From IMG/VR virus record IMGVR_UViG_2703718778_000014: 23,312 nucleotides of DNA; one strand, written 5' to 3'. A program made the translations under genes and the position numbers. The notes below the pieces were generated by a model, which was not told the origin of the DNA, did not search any database, and was given only the letters and a program-made list of their open reading frames with translations. Source of the stretch: a virus. Lineage: Duplodnaviria > Heunggongvirae > Uroviricota > Caudoviricetes. This document shows positions 3,131-19,139 of this stretch, piece after piece (position 1 is the stretch's first letter; each line of letters opens with the position of its first letter).

Positions 3131-3136
3131 GCATGT

Positions 3137-3304
3137 AAAAAGGCTCCTGCAATGAGGAGCCTGGATGTATGCCTAATCTCTGTATACTACATGGTGCCGG
3201 GTGCCTCCCGGTGAGTTCAGTATCAGCACCTGAACCCGCACAGAAAGGATAGAGTAGAAACACCTGCGCTGATATGCCCCTCCGCTCAGGGGGATTCACC
3301 ATGC
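3137..3304 (-). ncRNA. Candidate structured small RNA, repeat unit A (boundaries approximate)
   Basis: Conserved blocks shared with units B and C; variable 8-bp stem gagttcag (3213-3220) / ctgaaccc (3230-3237) fully paired only on the minus strand (G-U); minus-sense terminator hairpin 3142-3161 plus T-tract; no conserved ORF. Confidence 0.35.
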
Positions 3305-3398
3305 AGAACTTTTTTAACAACTCCCCGTCAGACAGGCAAGCATCAACCATCTGAACTGTGAGGGATTTAACATTTAACAACACAGCCTTTTCCCGCAC

Positions 3399-3563
3399 AA
3401 AAAAAGCCCCTCAGGAGAGGGGCCGATCGCTGTGTATACACCATAAGCAGCATAGTGCCGGGTGCCTCCCGGTAGATTCAGCCTGACTACTGAATCTGCG
3501 TATTGTGACCATCGCTATGGAGACCATGTCAGACGCCCCTCCGCACAGGGGGATTCACTATGC
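3399..3563 (-). ncRNA. Candidate structured small RNA, repeat unit B (boundaries approximate)
   Basis: Same conserved blocks; variable stem agattcag (3474-3481) / ctgaatct (3490-3497) with compensatory changes relative to A and C; strong minus-sense terminator gcccctcaggagaggggc (3406-3423) followed by TTTTTTT. Confidence 0.35.
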
Positions 3564-3779
3564 TGGCTCGTTTTTACAAGACTTCCATCAATCAGACAAT
3601 AGTCCATCAACCGAATTGTGAGTCATTTAACATTTCCATGAGGTAACTGATATCCAGCTAACAATCATCTGCAATGGACGAAGCCAGTTCCAGAACTTGC
3701 CCACACTACAGCAACAACCACTGCATTCCAAAAATGGAATTTTGGGAGATTACTTCTGCAAACAGCTACCGATAAATAT

Positions 3780-3916
3780 ATCCCTGATTGCCTGCGCAGT
3801 CTGTTCAAAACGCCCGGTATCCAGCTCAACGCCTATAGCACGACGCCCCAGCGCCATCGCTGCTTTAACTGCCGAACCCTACCCCATGAAGAAATCTGCA
3901 ACCAGGCCACCCGGCA
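3780..3916 (-). pseudogene. Relic copy of the 3' end of the DNA methyltransferase gene, with an in-frame stop
   Basis: Nucleotide-level match to 5316-5445 (C-terminal codons of the methyltransferase at 5290..6348); the Ser codon of the FFMGSGST motif (tcg) is TAG here (forward cta at 3879-3881); no start codon or N-terminal region present. Confidence 0.5.
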
Positions 3917-4033
3917 GAAGGGAGACTACAGCCCGCAATTCGAAAAAGGCCGCGCAGTTGCGCAGAGTGATTACTATGGGGTATTATTCGCCAGCTGAAA
4001 TATTACTTCACGTTTTATTGTTTATTCCTTGCC

Positions 4034-4061
4034 GCCCGCGTCTCCCAGCGCGGGCTTTTTT
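4034..4061 (+). terminator. Hairpin plus T6 tract (plus-strand half of a bidirectional terminator at the edge of repeat unit C)
   Basis: gcccgcg (4034-4040) / cgcgggc (4049-4055) followed by tttttt; second hairpin gcccctccagagaggggc at 4074-4091 serves the minus strand. Confidence 0.4.
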
Positions 4062-4065
4062 GTCC

Positions 4066-4245
4066 ATAAGAAAGCCCCTCCAGAGAGGGGCTGAAGCCGC
4101 ATTTCTGTATCACCATGAGCATGGTGCCGGGTGCCTCCCGGTGAGTTCAGCCCGGTGACACTAAACCCGCGTATTCTCGCTTACGATCATCAAAGAGATC
4201 ATACCGTTCACCAGTCGCCCCTCCGCACAGGGGGATTCACCATGC
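4066..4245 (-). ncRNA. Candidate structured small RNA, repeat unit C (boundaries approximate)
   Basis: Same conserved blocks; variable stem gagttcag (4143-4150) / ctaaaccc (4161-4168) has two mismatches on the plus strand that are G-U pairs on the minus strand; minus-sense terminator hairpin at 4074-4091. Confidence 0.35.
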
Positions 4246-4380
4246 GAAATTTTTTTAACAAATGCCCAGTCTGACAGGCAACTGTCAACTTACTGAATTG
4301 TGAGGAATTTAACACTTCACAGCACAATATCTTTCCAGCACCCCAAAATCATCTGGACAGGAGAAAATCTTCTCCCCCAG

Positions 4381-4809
4381 TCAGAGTTTAAAATCCAGCA
4401 CGCCATTTCTAAATGCTTTATATACTCCTGAAGACGGTGGTGATGGTATATCAGCATTCTTTACTGCATTCATCGCTTCACGACATAAATCGGGATCACC
4501 GCTTTCTCTTTTAACCTGTAGCAGAAGACCATTCGGGGCCATATACATTCTCAGTGAACACTCTTTTCCTGAATACTTACCCGCATCCTTTAACTGTTCT
4601 TCTATGGCTTCCCTGACCTGAATGGCATACTGCCGGATTTCTTCACTGGCATCAGGGGTACGTTCCGATAAGCTCAAATTTTGCGACTTTATTAATTTAT
4701 CTGAGTGATGCAGCGAAGCATCATAATTATTTGTCGATACATCTTTTGTGCAGCCAGTTGTCAGACTGGCTAATATCAAAACAAGAACCGGTACAGCACG
4801 GCAATACAT
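4381..4809 (-). CDS. Putative lipoprotein (142 aa), cargo gene in the stx-equivalent slot
   Basis: ATG at 4809 with RBS GGAGATGG; N-terminal signal peptide MYCRAVPVLVLILASLTTGC with a lipobox-like LTTGC; AT-rich upstream region suggests its own promoter. Family not recognised. Confidence 0.55.
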   Translation of the reverse strand: MYCRAVPVLVLILASLTTGCTKDVSTNNYDASLHHSDKLIKSQNLSLSERTPDASEEIRQYAIQVREAIEEQLKDAGKYSGKECSLRMYMAPNGLLLQVKRESGDPDLCREAMNAVKNADIPSPPSSGVYKAFRNGVLDFKL

Positions 4810-5087: not shown

Positions 5088-5164
5088 TGGACCGCCATCG
5101 AGGACTCGAACCCCGCGCAGCCAGCTCCGAAGGCTGGCGCTCTATCCCGATGAGCTAATGGCGG
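5088..5164 (-). tRNA. tRNA-Arg, anticodon UCG (77 nt including CCA)
   Basis: Manual cloverleaf on the minus strand: acceptor CCGCCAT/ATGGCGG, D-arm GCTC...GAGC, anticodon stem CCAGC/GCTGG with loop CUUCGGA, T-arm CGGGG-TTCGAGT-CCTCG, 3' CCA. C1-G72 pair is unusual. Confidence 0.7.
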
Positions 5165-5173
5165 TATGTGATA

Positions 5174-5249
5174 TGGTGGCCCTTGCTGGATTTGAACCAG
5201 CGACCTGGCGATTATGAGTCGCTCGCTCTCACCACTGAGCTAAAGGGCC
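5174..5249 (-). tRNA. tRNA-Ile2 type with anticodon CAU (ileX/ileZ-like; tRNA-Met not formally excluded)
   Basis: Minus strand reads GGCCCTTTAGCTCAGTGGTGAGAGCGAGCGACTCATAATCGCCAGGTCGCTGGTTCAAATCCAGCAAGGGCCACCA; canonical arms, anticodon loop CUCAUAA; close to E. coli ileX as recalled. Confidence 0.8.
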
Positions 5250-14507: not shown

Positions 14508-15083
14508 CTATGGTAAAACCAGGTCATCCGCTTGCGTTTCGGTGAACAGTGGCAACGACTGCACAATATCCACCACAGTTTCTGTTTTAATATCTTCCTG
14601 TGTAGTCGTTTGCTGGACTGGTAACGCAACACCTGCTGGCTGAGGAAGGGCTTTACCATCCGTTTCCGCTACAGATGCGGCTTTCGGCTCTACTGGTAAA
14701 TTATCGCCCGGCATGCAGTAACGAAATTTACCGCCCTGATTCACGCGAATCAGACGCCCTTTGCTGATTGCCATTGCCAGCGATGAATTCGCACGGCGGG
14801 AGGTAATTCCGAACATCAATGCCAGCTCATCCGCCGTTTGTGGGCCATGTTGTTCAATCGCCTCTGTCAGCATTTGCGCCGTCACTTTTGGTGGTTGTAT
14901 CACAGATTCACTTTCCCCTGCCTGAGTCAGCCACCACATCGCCCCCCTGTTATCCGCTTCACCACGGCGTTTCAGTTTCCACAGTTCGTTGACAGCCTCT
15001 TCACGACTGATTCCAAGGCGCGCAGCCACCACATGTGAAGAGGCTTTTTTCAGTGCTTTCAGTGCGTCAGATACGGTTTCCAT
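14508..15083 (-). CDS. Phage protein with N-terminal winged-helix-like domain (191 aa)
   Basis: ATG at 15083 with RBS GGAGGA; N-terminal [34 protein letters not shown]; family not firmly recognised. Confidence 0.5.
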
Positions 15084-15104: not shown

Positions 15105-15851
15105 TTACTTCACAACCCTCATATTGCTGACATTTGGACGCCAGCTATCCCAGTTAAACGTCACCCATCGACCACCGTTCATGGTCATGCGGTCCATAAT
15201 CCTCTCACCAAGAAGCGTACTCATTGCGGCATGATTCAGGTTTGTTAACATCCCGACACTGCACAGTGATGCTGTCCGGCGATCAATTATCTGGTGCAAT
15301 ACCACCTGCTCGTTTTTCGTCTCCCGCTGGACGCCTATTTCATCCAGGACCAGCAAATCAACCCCGCAAAGCTCCTGTAAAAATTTTTCCCCGGATTTGC
15401 CGTTGTCGTAGCTGTCATGCAACACGCTCATGACGTCAGACACGGTGACGATAATCACGCTGCGCCCCTTCACCATCAGCCGGTTGCCCATCGCCGCTGC
15501 AAGGTGATTTTTCCCGGTGCCGGTTTTACCGCTGAACACAAAATTCGTGCACCCGGTCATCAGTTCGTCAGCTATGGATTTGGCCTAGCTCAGCGCGTAT
15601 TTTTGCCCGTCGTTCTGCACCTGATAATTTGCAAACGAGCATTTGCTGTGCAGAGGCTGGATGCCCGAACGATTCAGGATTTTTTCCACCCGCAACTGGC
15701 GATTCTGGCAGTTAATCTCCTCGCTGCGTTTTCGTCCTTCAGCAAGTTGCCATTCCCGCCACTCCTCCACCGTCCGGTACGGTGGAACCGCCCCCAGTGG
15801 TGCAAGTCTGCGAATACATTCAAGAACCCCAACTGCCGCAATGTTTTTCAT
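15105..15851 (-). pseudogene. DnaC-like helicase loader (YdaV-like) interrupted by a single in-frame amber codon
   Basis: N-terminal fragment (15588..15851, ends ...FANYQVQNDGQKYALS) and C-terminal fragment (15105..15560, FSGKTGTGKNHLAAA Walker A) are in one frame separated by TAG at 15585-15587; read-through gives ...KYALS*AKSIADELMTG..., collinear with E. coli DnaC. Confidence 0.7.
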
Positions 15852-15857
15852 GCCACA

Positions 15858-16841
15858 TCACCCCCTGAATCCCGGCGGTATTTCAGTGTCCGGTTCAGAA
15901 ATGTGATTTACGCAACGCTGCGCGGGCGAACGCCCCAGGCGGATAACCAGTTCATCCCATTTTTCCCTGAGTTTTGCCGGACTCATGATGTTTTTTACCC
16001 AGAACGAATCCCGCTGGACACGCCCAAACATTTCACAAATCTGCCGGTGACTACGTCCATCCAGCATACGCATCATGCGCACATCATTCGCCCAGGTCGT
16101 CCAGTTAGGTTCTCTGGGGCGTGACACCTCACCATCATCACTGGCGGCCTGTTCATACAACGCCACAACCCGTCCCCAAATCCACTGCGCACAGGCGACA
16201 TCCTCACGGGTACCCCACTGTCGCTTCGGTACATTCCAGGTATGCGCATCTGGGTGTTTCTCCAGAAATCGCTCAACTGGTGATGATCGTTTTTCGTCCA
16301 GCAGTGAAACGTCCGGACAAGAAGATCTTTTATCTGACGGATCAGGTTTTAATACTGACGGATCGGGGTCAATCATCGCCCCCCTAATACGCAGTTTTTT
16401 ATCAACCGTTGATCCATCAACATTTGACGGGTCAACCGTTGAGGGGGCAATATTTGACGGGTTAACTGTTAACGGGTCATTTTTTGCCGGGCTAATTTTT
16501 CTTTTCGGTTTATATGCCTCACGCGCCGCAGTTGCAGCTGCTTCGAGTTTTTCCACATTAAGCCGATAGATATTGCTTACGTTACGCCCACCGACCTTAC
16601 GCTCTTCCTTCGTCAGCCAGCCCTCTTTCGCCAGTTCTGCAATAGCAGATTTAACGGTGGATTCACTTCTTGCACCGATCTGACGCCGGATAGTTTCAAT
16701 GGCAGGCCATGACACGCCCTCGTCATTGCTGTAGTCTGCAAGACGGGCCATAACCGCCACCCTGGATAAGATCATGCCGGTGAAGGCGCACCCTTCCCAG
16801 ACAAGACCATGAAGCTTGCTGCTCATAAACCCCCCGAACAC
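15858..16841 (-). CDS. Replication initiator, lambda O-like / YdaU-like, with internal iterons
   Basis: N-terminal HTH-like region (VSWPAIETIRRQIGARSESTVKSAIAELAKEGWL); start is GTG at 16841 or ATG at 16826 (G-rich RBS); contains the iteron cluster at 16402-16476. Confidence 0.6.
   Translation of the reverse strand: MFGGFMSSKLHGLVWEGCAFTGMILSRVAVMARLADYSNDEGVSWPAIETIRRQIGARSESTVKSAIAELAKEGWLTKEERKVGGRNVSNIYRLNVEKLEAAATAAREAYKPKRKISPAKNDPLTVNPSNIAPSTVDPSNVDGSTVDKKLRIRGAMIDPDPSVLKPDPSDKRSSCPDVSLLDEKRSSPVERFLEKHPDAHTWNVPKRQWGTREDVACAQWIWGRVVALYEQAASDDGEVSRPREPNWTTWANDVRMMRMLDGRSHRQICEMFGRVQRDSFWVKNIMSPAKLREKWDELVIRLGRSPAQRCVNHISEPDTEIPPGFRG
16402..16476. repeat. Iteron cluster (candidate replication origin) inside the O-like gene
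   Basis: Five tandem roughly 15-bp units of the form TCAAC-NN-TTGA-CGGG (tcaaccgttgatcc, tcaacatttgacggg, tcaaccgttgaggggg, caatatttgacggg, ttaactgttaacggg) followed by an AT-rich tract (16477-16520). Confidence 0.5.
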
Positions 16842-16848
16842 CGTGCTT

Positions 16849-17274
16849 TTAGTGCATCACCACAGCATTCCCTGCCGGGCCGCCGCGATTCATCTGGTCA
16901 TACAAAACAACCGCTGACGCAACAAAATCATCGACATCCTTCACCAGCCGATCCCTCCGTTCGACGATCTCACGGTAATATTCAGAACTGTGGCTGCGCA
17001 TACGGGCCACCAGCAAAGGCGGCATCGCCTTTTCGATCGCCGGTAACAGAGCCTGCATTTTTTCAACAGCATCAGGGGTGTCTTTATCCAGCCAACGGAA
17101 AATTTTCTGTGTATTACGGGCCAGGGCTTCCGGATGGCTGTCGTCGTACAGTTCAGGGAACGTCATCCCCAGTTCGAAATAAGTCCGGGCTATTTCAGCT
17201 GCAGGAACTTTCTCACCGTCCGGATAGGCCCAGGCATTGATCGCCATGCGGATGTGCTCATGCTTGATTTTCAT
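16849..17274 (-). CDS. YdaT-like protein (Rac-prophage-type early gene, 141 aa)
   Basis: ATG at 17274 with RBS AGGAG; position between the Cro-like and O-like genes as ydaT in Rac; assignment by gene order and size. Confidence 0.45.
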   Translation of the reverse strand: MKIKHEHIRMAINAWAYPDGEKVPAAEIARTYFELGMTFPELYDDSHPEALARNTQKIFRWLDKDTPDAVEKMQALLPAIEKAMPPLLVARMRSHSSEYYREIVERRDRLVKDVDDFVASAVVLYDQMNRGGPAGNAVVMH

Positions 17275-17539
17275 GAATCAAGCTCCTAGAAAGTGGTTGT
17301 GTTAACGTTTTGGTATCTTCCAGCTCAGGCCAAATATTCATCCAATCAAAAGGCCTTAGTTGCTGACGTGTAACTTCACCATTACTGGCTCGCTCAATAA
17401 GGACACATAACGATGCCCCTAACACTTGGCCTTTACTCAATGCCTTTCTTAGATAACCGATGCTGGTACCACACTCGCATGCAAACATACGCTGTTCATC
17501 TGACGAAAGAGAATTGAGAAATATTCTTAATTCTTCCAT
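17258..17539 (-). CDS. Cro-like / YdaS-like HTH regulator (93 aa), first gene of the early-right operon
   Basis: ATG at 17539 with strong RBS AAGGAG; HTH-like segment CECGTSIGYLRKALSKGQ; divergent from the repressor gene across the operator cluster. Confidence 0.5.
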   Translation of the reverse strand: MEELRIFLNSLSSDEQRMFACECGTSIGYLRKALSKGQVLGASLCVLIERASNGEVTRQQLRPFDWMNIWPELEDTKTLTQPLSRSLIHENQA

Positions 17540-17564
17540 AGCTACTCCTTAGTAAACACAGCAA

Positions 17565-17646
17565 AGAATACCTATAGGTAAACAAAAGTCAATACCTTTG
17601 GGTTGTTTACCTTACGGTAATCACATCTATTATTTACCTATGGACA
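17565..17646. promoter_or_regulatory. Right operator cluster with divergent pR-like and pRM-like promoters
   Basis: Palindromes TACCTATAGGTA (17569-17580), TACCTTTGGGTT (17593-17604), TACCTTACGGTA (17608-17619), TACCTATGGACA (17635-17646); minus-strand -35 TTGACT (17592-17587) and -10 TATTCT (17570-17565); plus-strand -10 TATTAT (17628-17633) ending 6 nt before the repressor ATG. Confidence 0.45.
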
Positions 17647-18059
17647 AATATGAATTTAGACGACAGCAGCTCATCAAAATTCGTGATGAGAAATGCGATG
17701 GTAAAGCGGTTAACGTAGCCAGAAAGATCGGTCGCGAGCCTTCTTATGTATCAAGAATGTTGTACCCAGAGGGGAAAAAGGGAAAAAAACGGATCGCTGA
17801 TGATATGGTGGAGATTATCGAAGAGTCCTTTGGGTTACCCCGAGGATGGATGGATGGTATCGTTTCATCATCAACGAACACAGCCTCCAATTATGAAACA
17901 AGGGTTCTAACGCCACGACAACGTATTTTTTTAGATCTCTTAGACGAGCTGCCAGAAAGTGAAGCGGATAACTTATTAAAAACTCTTGAAGAGAAAAAAC
18001 AGTATTACAATATGATCTACGAAGAAATCCGTAAAAAGAAAGCACAAAACGCATCATAA
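17640..18059 (+). CDS. Prophage repressor (CI/RacR-like, HTH)
   Basis: HTH-like segment GKAVNVARKIGREPSYVSRML; ATG at 17640 lies just downstream of a -10 element, suggesting a leaderless mRNA; the ORF-track start at 17598 would lie inside the operators. Confidence 0.55.
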   Translation: MDKYEFRRQQLIKIRDEKCDGKAVNVARKIGREPSYVSRMLYPEGKKGKKRIADDMVEIIEESFGLPRGWMDGIVSSSTNTASNYETRVLTPRQRIFLDLLDELPESEADNLLKTLEEKKQYYNMIYEEIRKKKAQNAS

Positions 18060-18104
18060 CTCACCAAACAACCAGTCACCAGTTAAGACGCCTGAAAAAA
18101 AGTT

Positions 18105-18145
18105 ACCCATGGGTATTTACTTTTTGGGTACCCATGGGTATGCTC
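18105..18145 (+). promoter_or_regulatory. Left operator pair overlapping a pL-like promoter
   Basis: Two copies of the perfect palindrome TACCCATGGGTA (18105-18116, 18130-18141) flanking -35 TTTACT (18117-18122) and -10 TATGCT (18140-18145), 17-nt spacer. Confidence 0.4.
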
Positions 18146-18325
18146 CCTTTCATACCAACCCACTCCGCCCCACAGAATGCAGGGCAATACCTCGAGTTAC
18201 CCGGCAGTGGTCAGGGGTTAAGTAGCCAGCCCGAGGCGTATGAACATGACGGCGGGAACACTTTGTATAACAGCGCAGCAGGTTTTTAGTTCCGCTACCC
18301 GGCGTTAAGGGTAAATGGGGTCAAC

Positions 18326-18478
18326 ATGGATACTATCGAGCTTGGCAACAACGAATCTCTGGTGTGCGGAGTATTCCCCAACCAAGACGGCACGTTTACC
18401 GCGATGACGTATACCAAAAGTAAAACGTTTAAAACCGAAGCTGGCGCGCATCGCTGGTTAGCCAGAAACGCTAACTGA
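18326..18478 (+). CDS. Small conserved phage protein (50 aa), possibly YdaF-like
   Basis: ATG at 18326; MDTIELGNNESLVCGVFPNQDGTFTAMTYTKSKTFKTEAGAHRWLARNAN; short, not in the ORF track; family recalled only loosely. Confidence 0.35.
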   Translation: MDTIELGNNESLVCGVFPNQDGTFTAMTYTKSKTFKTEAGAHRWLARNAN

Positions 18479-18746
18479 TTAGCGCCAGTAAAAACAGGTT
18501 TCCACAGGTTAATTTACCCTGAAAAGTCAGGGCATAACACGAAAGCGCACGGCGAGATTCCTTTGCATATAAGGTTAGATTTCTTCGACCGTGCGCTTCC
18601 GGTTGTGGCAATCCGCGAAATGGCGCGGCGGTAAGTATGGCGGGGTTATTCCTTCCCCCGTTGAGGACACCGGGTTGTCAGGTTGACCATACGCTTAAGT
18701 GACACCCCAGCCACAACAACCTCTGTTATCACTTTTCTGGTGATTC

Positions 18747-18773
18747 GGCGGAAATGAATATCCGCCCTTTTTA
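18747..18773 (+). terminator. Intrinsic terminator in the early-left leader
   Basis: Stem ggcgga (18747-18752) / tccgcc (18761-18766) followed by CTTTTT. Confidence 0.4.
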
Positions 18774-18950
18774 AAGTGAATTTTGTGATGCTGTGAATGC
18801 GGCTATGCGCACGCGGAACAGTTAAAGCAGTAAGGCGGTCTTTTACTGGCGTAACGAGCATCAACTAACCCGACGTTAATTGTTAACTGGTTAACGTCAC
18901 CTGGAGGCACCAGGCGCTGCATCACAAAATTCATTGTTGAGGACGCGATA

Positions 18951-19139
18951 ATGGAAACGTTATTACCAAACGTTAATACGTCTGAAGGTTGTTTTGATAT
19001 TGGTGTTCTGCTCAGTAATAAAGCGTTTACTGAGGATGCCATTAATATGCGGAAATATGAGCCTTATCTGCTCAATGATAATTCCATTCTTTCCCGAATT
19101 GCCCTTATTAAACTTGGTATTTTCGGAGAACGTCAATGA
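18951..19139 (+). CDS. Hypothetical protein (62 aa) in an AT-rich insert
   Basis: ORF in a locally AT-rich segment (about 18900-19200); stop overlaps the ATG of a 17-codon hydrophobic ORF (19136..19189, MTSAFALVMTVFLITGE). Confidence 0.3.
   Translation: METLLPNVNTSEGCFDIGVLLSNKAFTEDAINMRKYEPYLLNDNSILSRIALIKLGIFGERQ

Follow-up and report, generated by a model that had tools for sequence, protein, structure and literature searches.

Predicted operator sites and a probably leaderless repressor transcript in the immunity region of a lambdoid Escherichia coli prophage

The region described here lies at positions 17,565 to 18,145 of the virus record IMGVR_UViG_2703718778_000014 (Caudoviricetes), a stretch of 23,312 nucleotides that is called the window throughout, and comprises a repressor gene with the promoters and candidate operators on both of its sides. 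Its closest characterised counterpart is the PaaR2-YdaS-YdaT switch of CP-933P, a cryptic prophage of Escherichia coli O157:H7. In that switch the start of the paaR2 transcript was mapped to the A of the ATG start codon by rapid amplification of 5' cDNA ends (5' RACE) by Jurenas et al. (PMC8630535), and the N-terminus of PaaR2 was confirmed by protein sequencing and mass spectrometry (PMC8630535). The sequence TTGATT-N6-AATCAA was footprinted in CP-933P as the high-affinity YdaT site OM (PMC9986795), which covers an alternative, YdaT-activated start of the repressor operon (PMC9986795, PMC8630535).

The window belongs to a lambdoid prophage of E. coli. The tested 1.3 kb are 100% identical to strain S19-651 (NZ_CP075852.1), in which the prophage adjoins ompW. 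The same immunity region is present in 822 of 5,426 complete E. coli genomes, and its repressor gene is mostly annotated as 'hypothetical protein', as it is in the identical record. We read the region as the immunity switch of a lambdoid prophage next to ompW, in which a cluster of TACC-N4-GGTA sites would serve as repressor operators, five of the six proposed sites being real; the probability of this explanation as a whole is put at about 0.82. No description of an operator specificity of this kind was found in the searchable literature; the locus is a heteroimmune representative of a familiar type of switch.

Predicted operator sites and their conservation

The motif search for TACC-N4-GGTA that the first-pass annotation had proposed returned four exact copies of TACCNNNNGGTA in the window (starting at 17569, 17608, 18104 and 18129), all of them flanking the repressor gene. 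The chance expectation is 0.13, and none of 100 shuffled sequences reached four. A fifth site, TACCTTTGGGTT, starts at 17593 and carries one mismatch. Three of the sites (OR1, OR2 and OR3, Table 1) fall into the 100-bp gap between the divergent repressor and cro-like genes, at -71, -47 and -32 relative to the repressor ATG, and overlap the predicted promoters pR and pRM. The two sites 3' of the repressor gene (OL2 and OL1), announced beforehand as perfect copies at a pL-like promoter, are indeed both the perfect palindrome TACCCATGGGTA, 25 bp apart.

Four intergenic sites had originally been claimed. The claim stands for OR1 to OR3 and fails for TACCTATGGACA, which was rejected as an operator: it has two mismatches in its 4-bp right arm, its right half consists of the conserved Met-Asp codons of the repressor gene, and it has no counterpart in phage mEp043 or in 41 loci from other species, all outside the E. 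coli lineage.

These 41 loci were collected by scanning a profile of the N-terminal repressor domain over one genome per species (GTDB), and belong to gamma- and beta-proteobacteria (Enterobacterales, Aeromonas, Arsenophonus, Neisseria, Burkholderiales, Nitrosomonadales and Xanthomonadales). Within the 89 bp 5' of their repressor ATG (3.6 kb in total) they contain 59 exact TACCN4GGTA sites, versus 55 in the other 242 kb, most of the latter being downstream OL pairs. About 34 of the 41 loci, ranging from Enterobacterales to Neisseria, Burkholderiales and Xanthomonas, share a common architecture, with an exact site at -71 to -75, an imperfect site 24-25 bp further on and a third site exactly 15 bp later, at -32 to -35. 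The equivalents of OR2 are imperfect family-wide, with GGTT, GGGA or GGCC as right arm. Downstream pairs spaced by 24-26 bp occur in 31 of 43 loci (25 bp in 22 loci, 26 bp in eight and 24 bp in one). The family consensus is tTACC-YRYR-GGTAa with nearly invariant arms; the centres of OR1, OR2, OL1 and OL2 follow Y-R-Y-R, and OR3 alone, with a degenerate centre, departs from this rule.

Because the same N-terminal domain and the same sites are found joined to S24, to DicA-like (window, Yersinia pekkanenii, Arsenophonus) and to other short C-terminal domains, the sites track the N-terminal domain. They travel with one Cro family, characterised by the motif CGT(S/T)IGYLRKA; in 31 of the 42 other loci its gene and the repressor gene are divergent. 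That TACC-N4-GGTA arms accompany a single repressor domain and a single Cro family, at constant distances from the repressor ATG, bears out the distinct operator specificity first suggested for this locus. The lambda-like OR/OL logic suggested at the same time agrees with three OR and two OL sites around divergent pR and pRM promoters, in a layout conserved among the relatives.

A consensus scan of positions 17200-18700 returned only two promoters, pR and pRM; the pL-like promoter was read by eye, and its geometry matches pR and the OL regions of the relatives. pR and pL are of one design, in which an operator is followed by the -35 element, 6-7 nt and a second operator overlapping the -10 element. 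On the minus strand OR2 is directly followed by TTGACT, 6 nt and OR1, whose last two bases start the -10 element TATTCT; on the plus strand OL2 is directly followed by TTTACT, 7 nt and OL1, whose last two bases start TATGCT. OL regions of relatives read GGTA-TTGACn-7 nt-TACCnnnnGG-TAnnnT, and the motif tCAA-TACC (reverse complement GGTATTGA) at pR is likewise conserved in them. The -35 element of pRM, TTTACC, combines two T residues with the left arm of OR3, and the centre of OR2 would be located at -41.5 if transcription begins at 17640. In lambda, CI bound at OR2 activates pRM from that position (centre near -42).

Variation within E. coli was followed in a non-exhaustive sample of 11 haplotypes of the 100-bp intergenic region, in which variable positions number 9 of 12 in the centres, 1 of 24 in the arms and 11 of 64 elsewhere (Fisher p 2e-5). 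Loci with an identical repressor protein carry different centres. Because the centres vary and the arms hardly do, the arms resemble contacted bases and the centres bases under loose constraint. In phages 434 and P22 the operator centres set affinity through DNA shape. A rather unlikely reading for the present family is that the 4-bp centres are a fast-evolving tuning element of the switch and not mere spacers and, as the second part of the same reading, that one DNA-binding module with its operator set has been joined to SOS-cleavable and non-cleavable C-terminal domains. If the centres set affinity via DNA shape, lineages would re-tune the thresholds of the switch by centre substitutions, and the joining of that module to cleavable and non-cleavable C-terminal domains would provide naturally paired homoimmune phages that are induced by different routes.

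Sites of other form or place were also noted. In the Klebsiella loci L007, L010, L011 and L012, sites remain at -73, at -33 and downstream; OR2 and a divergent cro are missing, and a conserved TTTGCTATATTTTAG lies between the two upstream sites. In mEp043 (L004, 3553-3574) the sequence TACCTG-N10-CAGGTA, with wide-spaced arms, lies just 5' of the OL pair. In Advenella L042 and L046, whose domain is 38-42% identical, palindromes of the type TACCGC-N8-GCGGTA at about -55 to -30 replace the 12-bp sites. One-mismatch sites with a GTTA arm are present in the pL leader and in dicB of the window: TACCTCGAGTTA (18188-18199), TACCCGGCGTTA (18296-18307) and TACCAAACGTTA (18964-18975).

Table 1. Genes, promoters and operator sites, predicted or rejected, in and around the immunity region (positions of the window)
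Feature	Position	Strand	Description
Predicted OR1	17569-17580		TACCTATAGGTA, exact match; overlaps pR spacer and -10; centre fits consensus YRYR
Predicted OR2	17593-17604		TACCTTTGGGTT, imperfect right arm; abuts pR -35; centred at -41.5 from inferred pRM start
Predicted OR3	17608-17619		TACCTTACGGTA, exact match; overlaps pRM -35 and spacer
Predicted OL2	18104-18115		TACCCATGGGTA, exact match; directly 5' of pL -35
Predicted OL1	18129-18140		TACCCATGGGTA, exact match; overlaps pL spacer and -10
Rejected fourth site	17635-17646		TACCTATGGACA; overlaps ATG GAC
pR-like promoter for cro-like gene	17565-17592	-	-35 TTGACT 17592-17587, -10 TATTCT 17570-17565, spacer 16; 9/12 (scan)
pRM-like promoter for repressor	17606-17633	+	-35 TTTACC 17606-17611, -10 TATTAT 17628-17633, spacer 16; 9/12 (scan)
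pL-like promoter	18116-18144	+	-35 TTTACT 18116-18121, 17-bp spacer, -10 TATGCT 18139-18144; read by eye
YdaT operator OM	17264-17281		TTGATTTTCATGAATCAA, exact TTGATT-N6-AATCAA; sole copy in window
Repressor gene, 139 aa	17640-18059	+	N-terminal helix-turn-helix domain (residues 1-73), disordered linker, C-terminal helical domain like DicA/PaaR2
Cro-like gene, YdaS family, 93 aa	17258-17539	-	Pfam YdaS_toxin and PHROG 35
YdaT gene, functional equivalent of CII	16849-17274	-	PDB 8bt1 match, E 1e-88
ydfA	18326-18478	+	Annotation of identical record
dicB	18951-19139	+	Annotation of identical record

Predicted start of the repressor transcript

The first-pass annotation had placed a TATTAT -10 element six nucleotides before the repressor ATG at 17640 and had proposed a leaderless mRNA. 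By sequence and promoter scan the element is located exactly as claimed, and the ATG is not preceded by a Shine-Dalgarno motif. All 43 loci have ATG as start codon. The -10 calls were made with a simple consensus filter (A at position 2, T at position 6); under this strict filter 29 of the 43 loci have a -10-like hexamer whose end is 6-7 nt from the ATG, preceded by TTTACC at a distance of 16-18 bp; in most of the remaining loci this place is taken by an nnnAAT hexamer. Hardly any Shine-Dalgarno-like motifs occur 5' of the repressor genes of the 43 loci; the cro-like gene has AAGGAG (17550-17545), eight bases 5' of its ATG. Conservation of the protein begins at Met-1 (MDKYE), and the in-frame stretch upstream of it is operator DNA.

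Because the -10 element ends 6 nt before the ATG and no Shine-Dalgarno motif is present, the maintenance mRNA of the repressor probably starts at the A of the ATG, with 17640 as predicted start, and would be leaderless. The strongest argument for such a start is the homology to paaR2, a gene of identical geometry (GATAAT, 6 nt, ATG). PaaR2 (MQKKE..., 123 aa) matches the window repressor with a BLASTP E-value of 9e-9 and 23% identity in a 90-aa alignment that starts at the recognition helix and includes the C-terminal domain. The original proposal of a leaderless repressor mRNA is thus backed both by this homology and by the conserved spacing of -10 element and ATG.

In an alternative that we regard as unlikely the operators are real and the mRNA is not leaderless: steady-state transcripts would originate from a YdaT-dependent promoter of the pRE type or from a promoter inside cro, and the ATG would be used internally without a Shine-Dalgarno motif, aided by an AU-rich leader. 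The exact YdaT operator makes an upstream promoter directed toward the repressor likely (PMC8630535, PMC9986795), and the -35 element of pRM is nothing better than TTTACC, buried in OR3. However, the distance between promoter and ATG is conserved in at least 40 loci, with ATG as start in all, and the homologous paaR2 with its identical geometry is experimentally leaderless (PMC8630535). YdaT, moreover, should not be made in a repressed prophage, so that a pRE-type promoter cannot maintain the repressor.

The term leaderless, as preferred here, would apply to the maintenance promoter only. The OM sequence of the window, TTGATTTTCATGAATCAA, is located on the ydaS-ydaT junction, spans the ydaT start codon and is identical in the locus used for comparison, a CP-933P-type locus from an O157:H7 genome (L050). 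The YdaT protein of the window is near-identical to the crystallised YdaT of CP-933P (PDB 8bt1, E 1e-88). Because the exact operator and a near-identical YdaT are both present, a second repressor transcript with a long leader is expected during establishment, from a pRE-type promoter near OM. A long upstream leader would not by itself refute the leaderless mRNA, since the YdaT-driven transcript is predicted to coexist with it, as its counterparts do in lambda and CP-933P.

In genomes with other cro types, BLAST matches to the ydaT segment extend no further than 17280-17286, which places a mosaic recombination junction directly after OM. Rac-type genomes share just about 36 bp around the YdaT operator.

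Repressor protein, prophage context and proposed mode of action

The repressor has no match in Pfam, including none to S24, but is assigned to PHROG 5736 ('transcriptional regulator', E 5e-70). The NCBIfam DicA model NF007257 scores 24.1 bits, below its cut-off of 101, and aligns only with residues 84-136; identity to DicA is 33% over the C-terminal 46 residues. A search of 5.8 billion proteins found the first ~75 residues to be 50-85% identical to the N-terminal domain of many repressors of 221-242 aa that carry a LexA/S24 peptidase domain (PF00717) and originate from Salmonella, Edwardsiella, Yersinia, Pantoea, Klebsiella and others. The N-terminal domain has the form MDKYE..REPSYVSRMLY..KKRIADDM..LPRGWMDG and is 64-79% identical to 15 family members, with 31 invariant columns. 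An AlphaFold model with a mean predicted local distance difference test score of 84 places the helix-turn-helix helices at residues 3-18, 23-30, 34-40 and 54-63, a disordered linker at 77-87 and two C-terminal helices at 92-102 (short) and 106-138 (long). The repressor has no homology to RacR, and sequence matches in the PDB, searched with the single protein or with a domain profile, include none that is significant, only Z-alpha matches at chance level. E. coli P0016 and P0019 have a variant N-terminus (MNLDDSNSSKFV...), which is read from an ATG in the +1 frame at 17650 and returns to the repressor frame near residue 50, a frameshift of the repressor gene that destroys the helix-turn-helix domain.

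Because the repressor carries no LexA-type self-cleavage domain, induction could not work as in lambda, and a RecA-dependent route of the lambda type is not expected. For the same reason an antirepressor is expected as the likely inducer. Rep of Salmonella phage SPC32H is reportedly induced by an antirepressor. No antirepressor gene was found among ten large open reading frames in the left part of the window.

On the minus strand the switch is followed leftward by the YdaS-type cro-like gene, the YdaT gene, an O-like replication gene and a DnaC/IstB-like gene. The plus strand carries, to the right, the repressor gene, ydfA (DUF1391), dicB, exonuclease, xis and int, the downstream names being taken from the annotation of the identical record; the pL-like promoter would drive the genes from ydfA to int. 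RelB or ParE genes are absent, the repressor stop codon (18059) being followed by OL/pL and then by ydfA. The identical RefSeq record annotates internal stops (pseudogenes) in the P-like DnaC/IstB-like ATPase gene and in a DUF1627 gene (window 15105-15851 and 14508-15083; L001 3168-4652), because of which the prophage is probably defective and looks replication-defective.

A DicF RNA was not detected in the pL operon, neither with the gathering threshold nor with E-values allowed up to 1; the segment upstream of dicB (18480-18950) gave just a sub-threshold STnc100-like match at 18756-18970. In Qin and in phage Tritos dicF sits between ydfC and dicB, whereas dicB of the window has no detected DicF. 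Three tandem copies of the STnc100 small RNA (121-172 bits) and two tRNA genes are located on the minus strand at 3131-4274 and 5091-5249, flanked by Q antiterminator / DNA methylase genes and a NanS-like esterase gene, and an open reading frame with a TolA C-terminal domain lies at 4381-4809. Inside the O-like replication gene (16400-16470) repeated motifs like GGGTCAACCGTTGA / GGTTAACTGTTAACGGG resemble origin iterons.

From the conserved sequence architecture the following mode of action is proposed. Repressor dimers would bind the 12-bp sites, possibly in a cooperative manner, via the TACC and GGTA arms, with a loosely constrained 4-bp centre between them. Occupancy of OR1 and OR2, 24 bp apart, would block pR and keep cro, ydaT and the replication genes silent; occupancy of OL1 and OL2 would block pL and silence ydfA, dicB, exonuclease, xis and int. 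From OR2 the repressor may activate pRM, and an occupied OR3 would hold repressor synthesis in check; Cro is expected to compete for the same sites. Induction would proceed via an antirepressor, not via RecA-stimulated cleavage. DicA keeps dicB off in Qin, and the main present-day role of the switch in the defective prophage is probably to do the same.

Several points weigh against reading the locus as such a switch. The arms of OR3 are perfect, so a lambda-like order of OR1, OR2 and OR3 is not evident and has the non-consensus centre of OR3 as its one basis. The pL-like promoter is a weak match to the consensus (8/12) and falls under the threshold of the scan. No intrinsic terminator is predicted from the repressor stop codon to OL2/pL (18059-18104), which leaves read-through from pRM into the ydfA-dicB operon unexplained. 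A few loci lack the sites or have other layouts, namely L026, L037, L042, L046 and the Klebsiella loci. A literature search for 11 exact operator 12-mers gave only unrelated primer matches and no paper containing them. In a defective prophage, finally, the switch may act only to silence toxic genes.

It is very improbable that the sites are bound mainly by the YdaS-like Cro or by a host factor and that the 139-aa protein regulates something else, a possibility suggested by the Cro family, whose co-occurrence with the sites is nearly as tight as that of the repressor domain. The four Klebsiella loci named above retain sites at -73, at -33 and downstream yet have no divergent cro. Furthermore, the sites keep a fixed distance from the repressor ATG and are also found 3' of the repressor gene, repressor and Cro share operators in lambda, 434, P22 and CP-933P, and the spread over two bacterial classes makes a host factor unlikely. 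That the cluster reflects chance or the composition of an AT-rich intergenic region is refuted by the shuffled sequences and by positional conservation over 41 independent loci with variable centres, even though one-mismatch matches in the whole window (19 vs 5.2 in shuffles) hint at a compositional bias toward the arm sequences.

The locus represents a common immunity type of E. coli, whose DNA-binding domain, operators and Cro are found in company throughout gamma- and beta-proteobacteria. The consensus tTACC-YRYR-GGTAa and the three-plus-two layout allow such immunity regions to be recognised and annotated, and homoimmunity between prophages and phages such as mEp043 becomes predictable. 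In these strains the repressor is a likely candidate for silencing the division inhibitor dicB, similar to the action of DicA and RacR in K-12. More than 40 loci of the family form a further independent set, the second one, in which repressor genes show leaderless geometry; no new principle is involved. The switch is tidy rather than surprising, and in sequence its DNA-binding domain and operators belong to the uncharacterised mEp043 immunity type.

Comparison with known systems

CP-933P and the window have in common the gene order ydaT, ydaS, intergenic region of about 100 bp and repressor, a near-identical YdaT and an identical OM operator. The Cro of the window is 36% identical to YdaS of CP-933P, and the repressors are distant homologs with the same architecture of a short helix-turn-helix domain and a DicA-like helical domain. 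Both loci show the geometry of -10 element, 6 nt and ATG, and both have a second operator set at a pL-like promoter. The operators differ: those of CP-933P are repeats with the half-site GTTTAGTAA, in contrast to TACC-N4-GGTA in the window, where GTTTAGTAA-type operators gave only one-mismatch matches at chance level and no intergenic array. Four equally spaced 18-bp repeats in CP-933P correspond to three sites at distances of 24 and 15 bp in the window. The repressor gene of CP-933P is followed by the paaA2-parE2 toxin-antitoxin pair, which is co-transcribed with it, whereas in the window pL follows directly. Unlike PaaR2, the window repressor has an N-terminal domain of the mEp043-type subfamily.

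Lambda shares with the window the divergent repressor and cro genes, three common sites over pR and pRM with OR1 and OR2 24 bp apart, a middle site centred near -42 and a second group of operators at pL, on the far side of the repressor gene. A leaderless maintenance mRNA and a CII-type establishment promoter, both predicted for the window, complete the likeness. The sites of the window are, however, 12 bp long with an unconstrained 4-bp centre, compared with 17 bp in lambda; OR2 and OR3 are 15 bp apart, and there are two OL sites instead of three. Further differences are a repressor without S24 domain, a CII analogue, YdaT, that is unrelated in fold to CII, and the absence of N and nutL, with a pL that would drive ydfA and dicB.

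Rep of SPC32H (PDB 5d50) has no significant HMMER match to the window repressor, and its C-terminal domain and tetrameric binding mode are said to differ.

Phage mEp043 (PV340537.1, NC_019706.1) encodes a CI protein whose N-terminal 86 residues are 65% identical to the window repressor. Its sites at -72, -47 and -32, its OL pair with a distance of 25 bp and its -10 element TAGAAT, 6 nt before the ATG, repeat the layout of the window. It differs by the length of CI (228 aa, with S24 peptidase domain), by another type of cII and by an N gene 3' of pL. A published operator study of mEp043 was not found in the searched literature.

The DicA/DicC-dicB region of Qin in E. coli K-12 resembles the window in that the repressor gene is followed by ydfA (DUF1391) and dicB, the N-terminal domain of DicA being unrelated in sequence. 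By analogy with DicA, the window repressor probably protects its host by keeping the division inhibitor silent.

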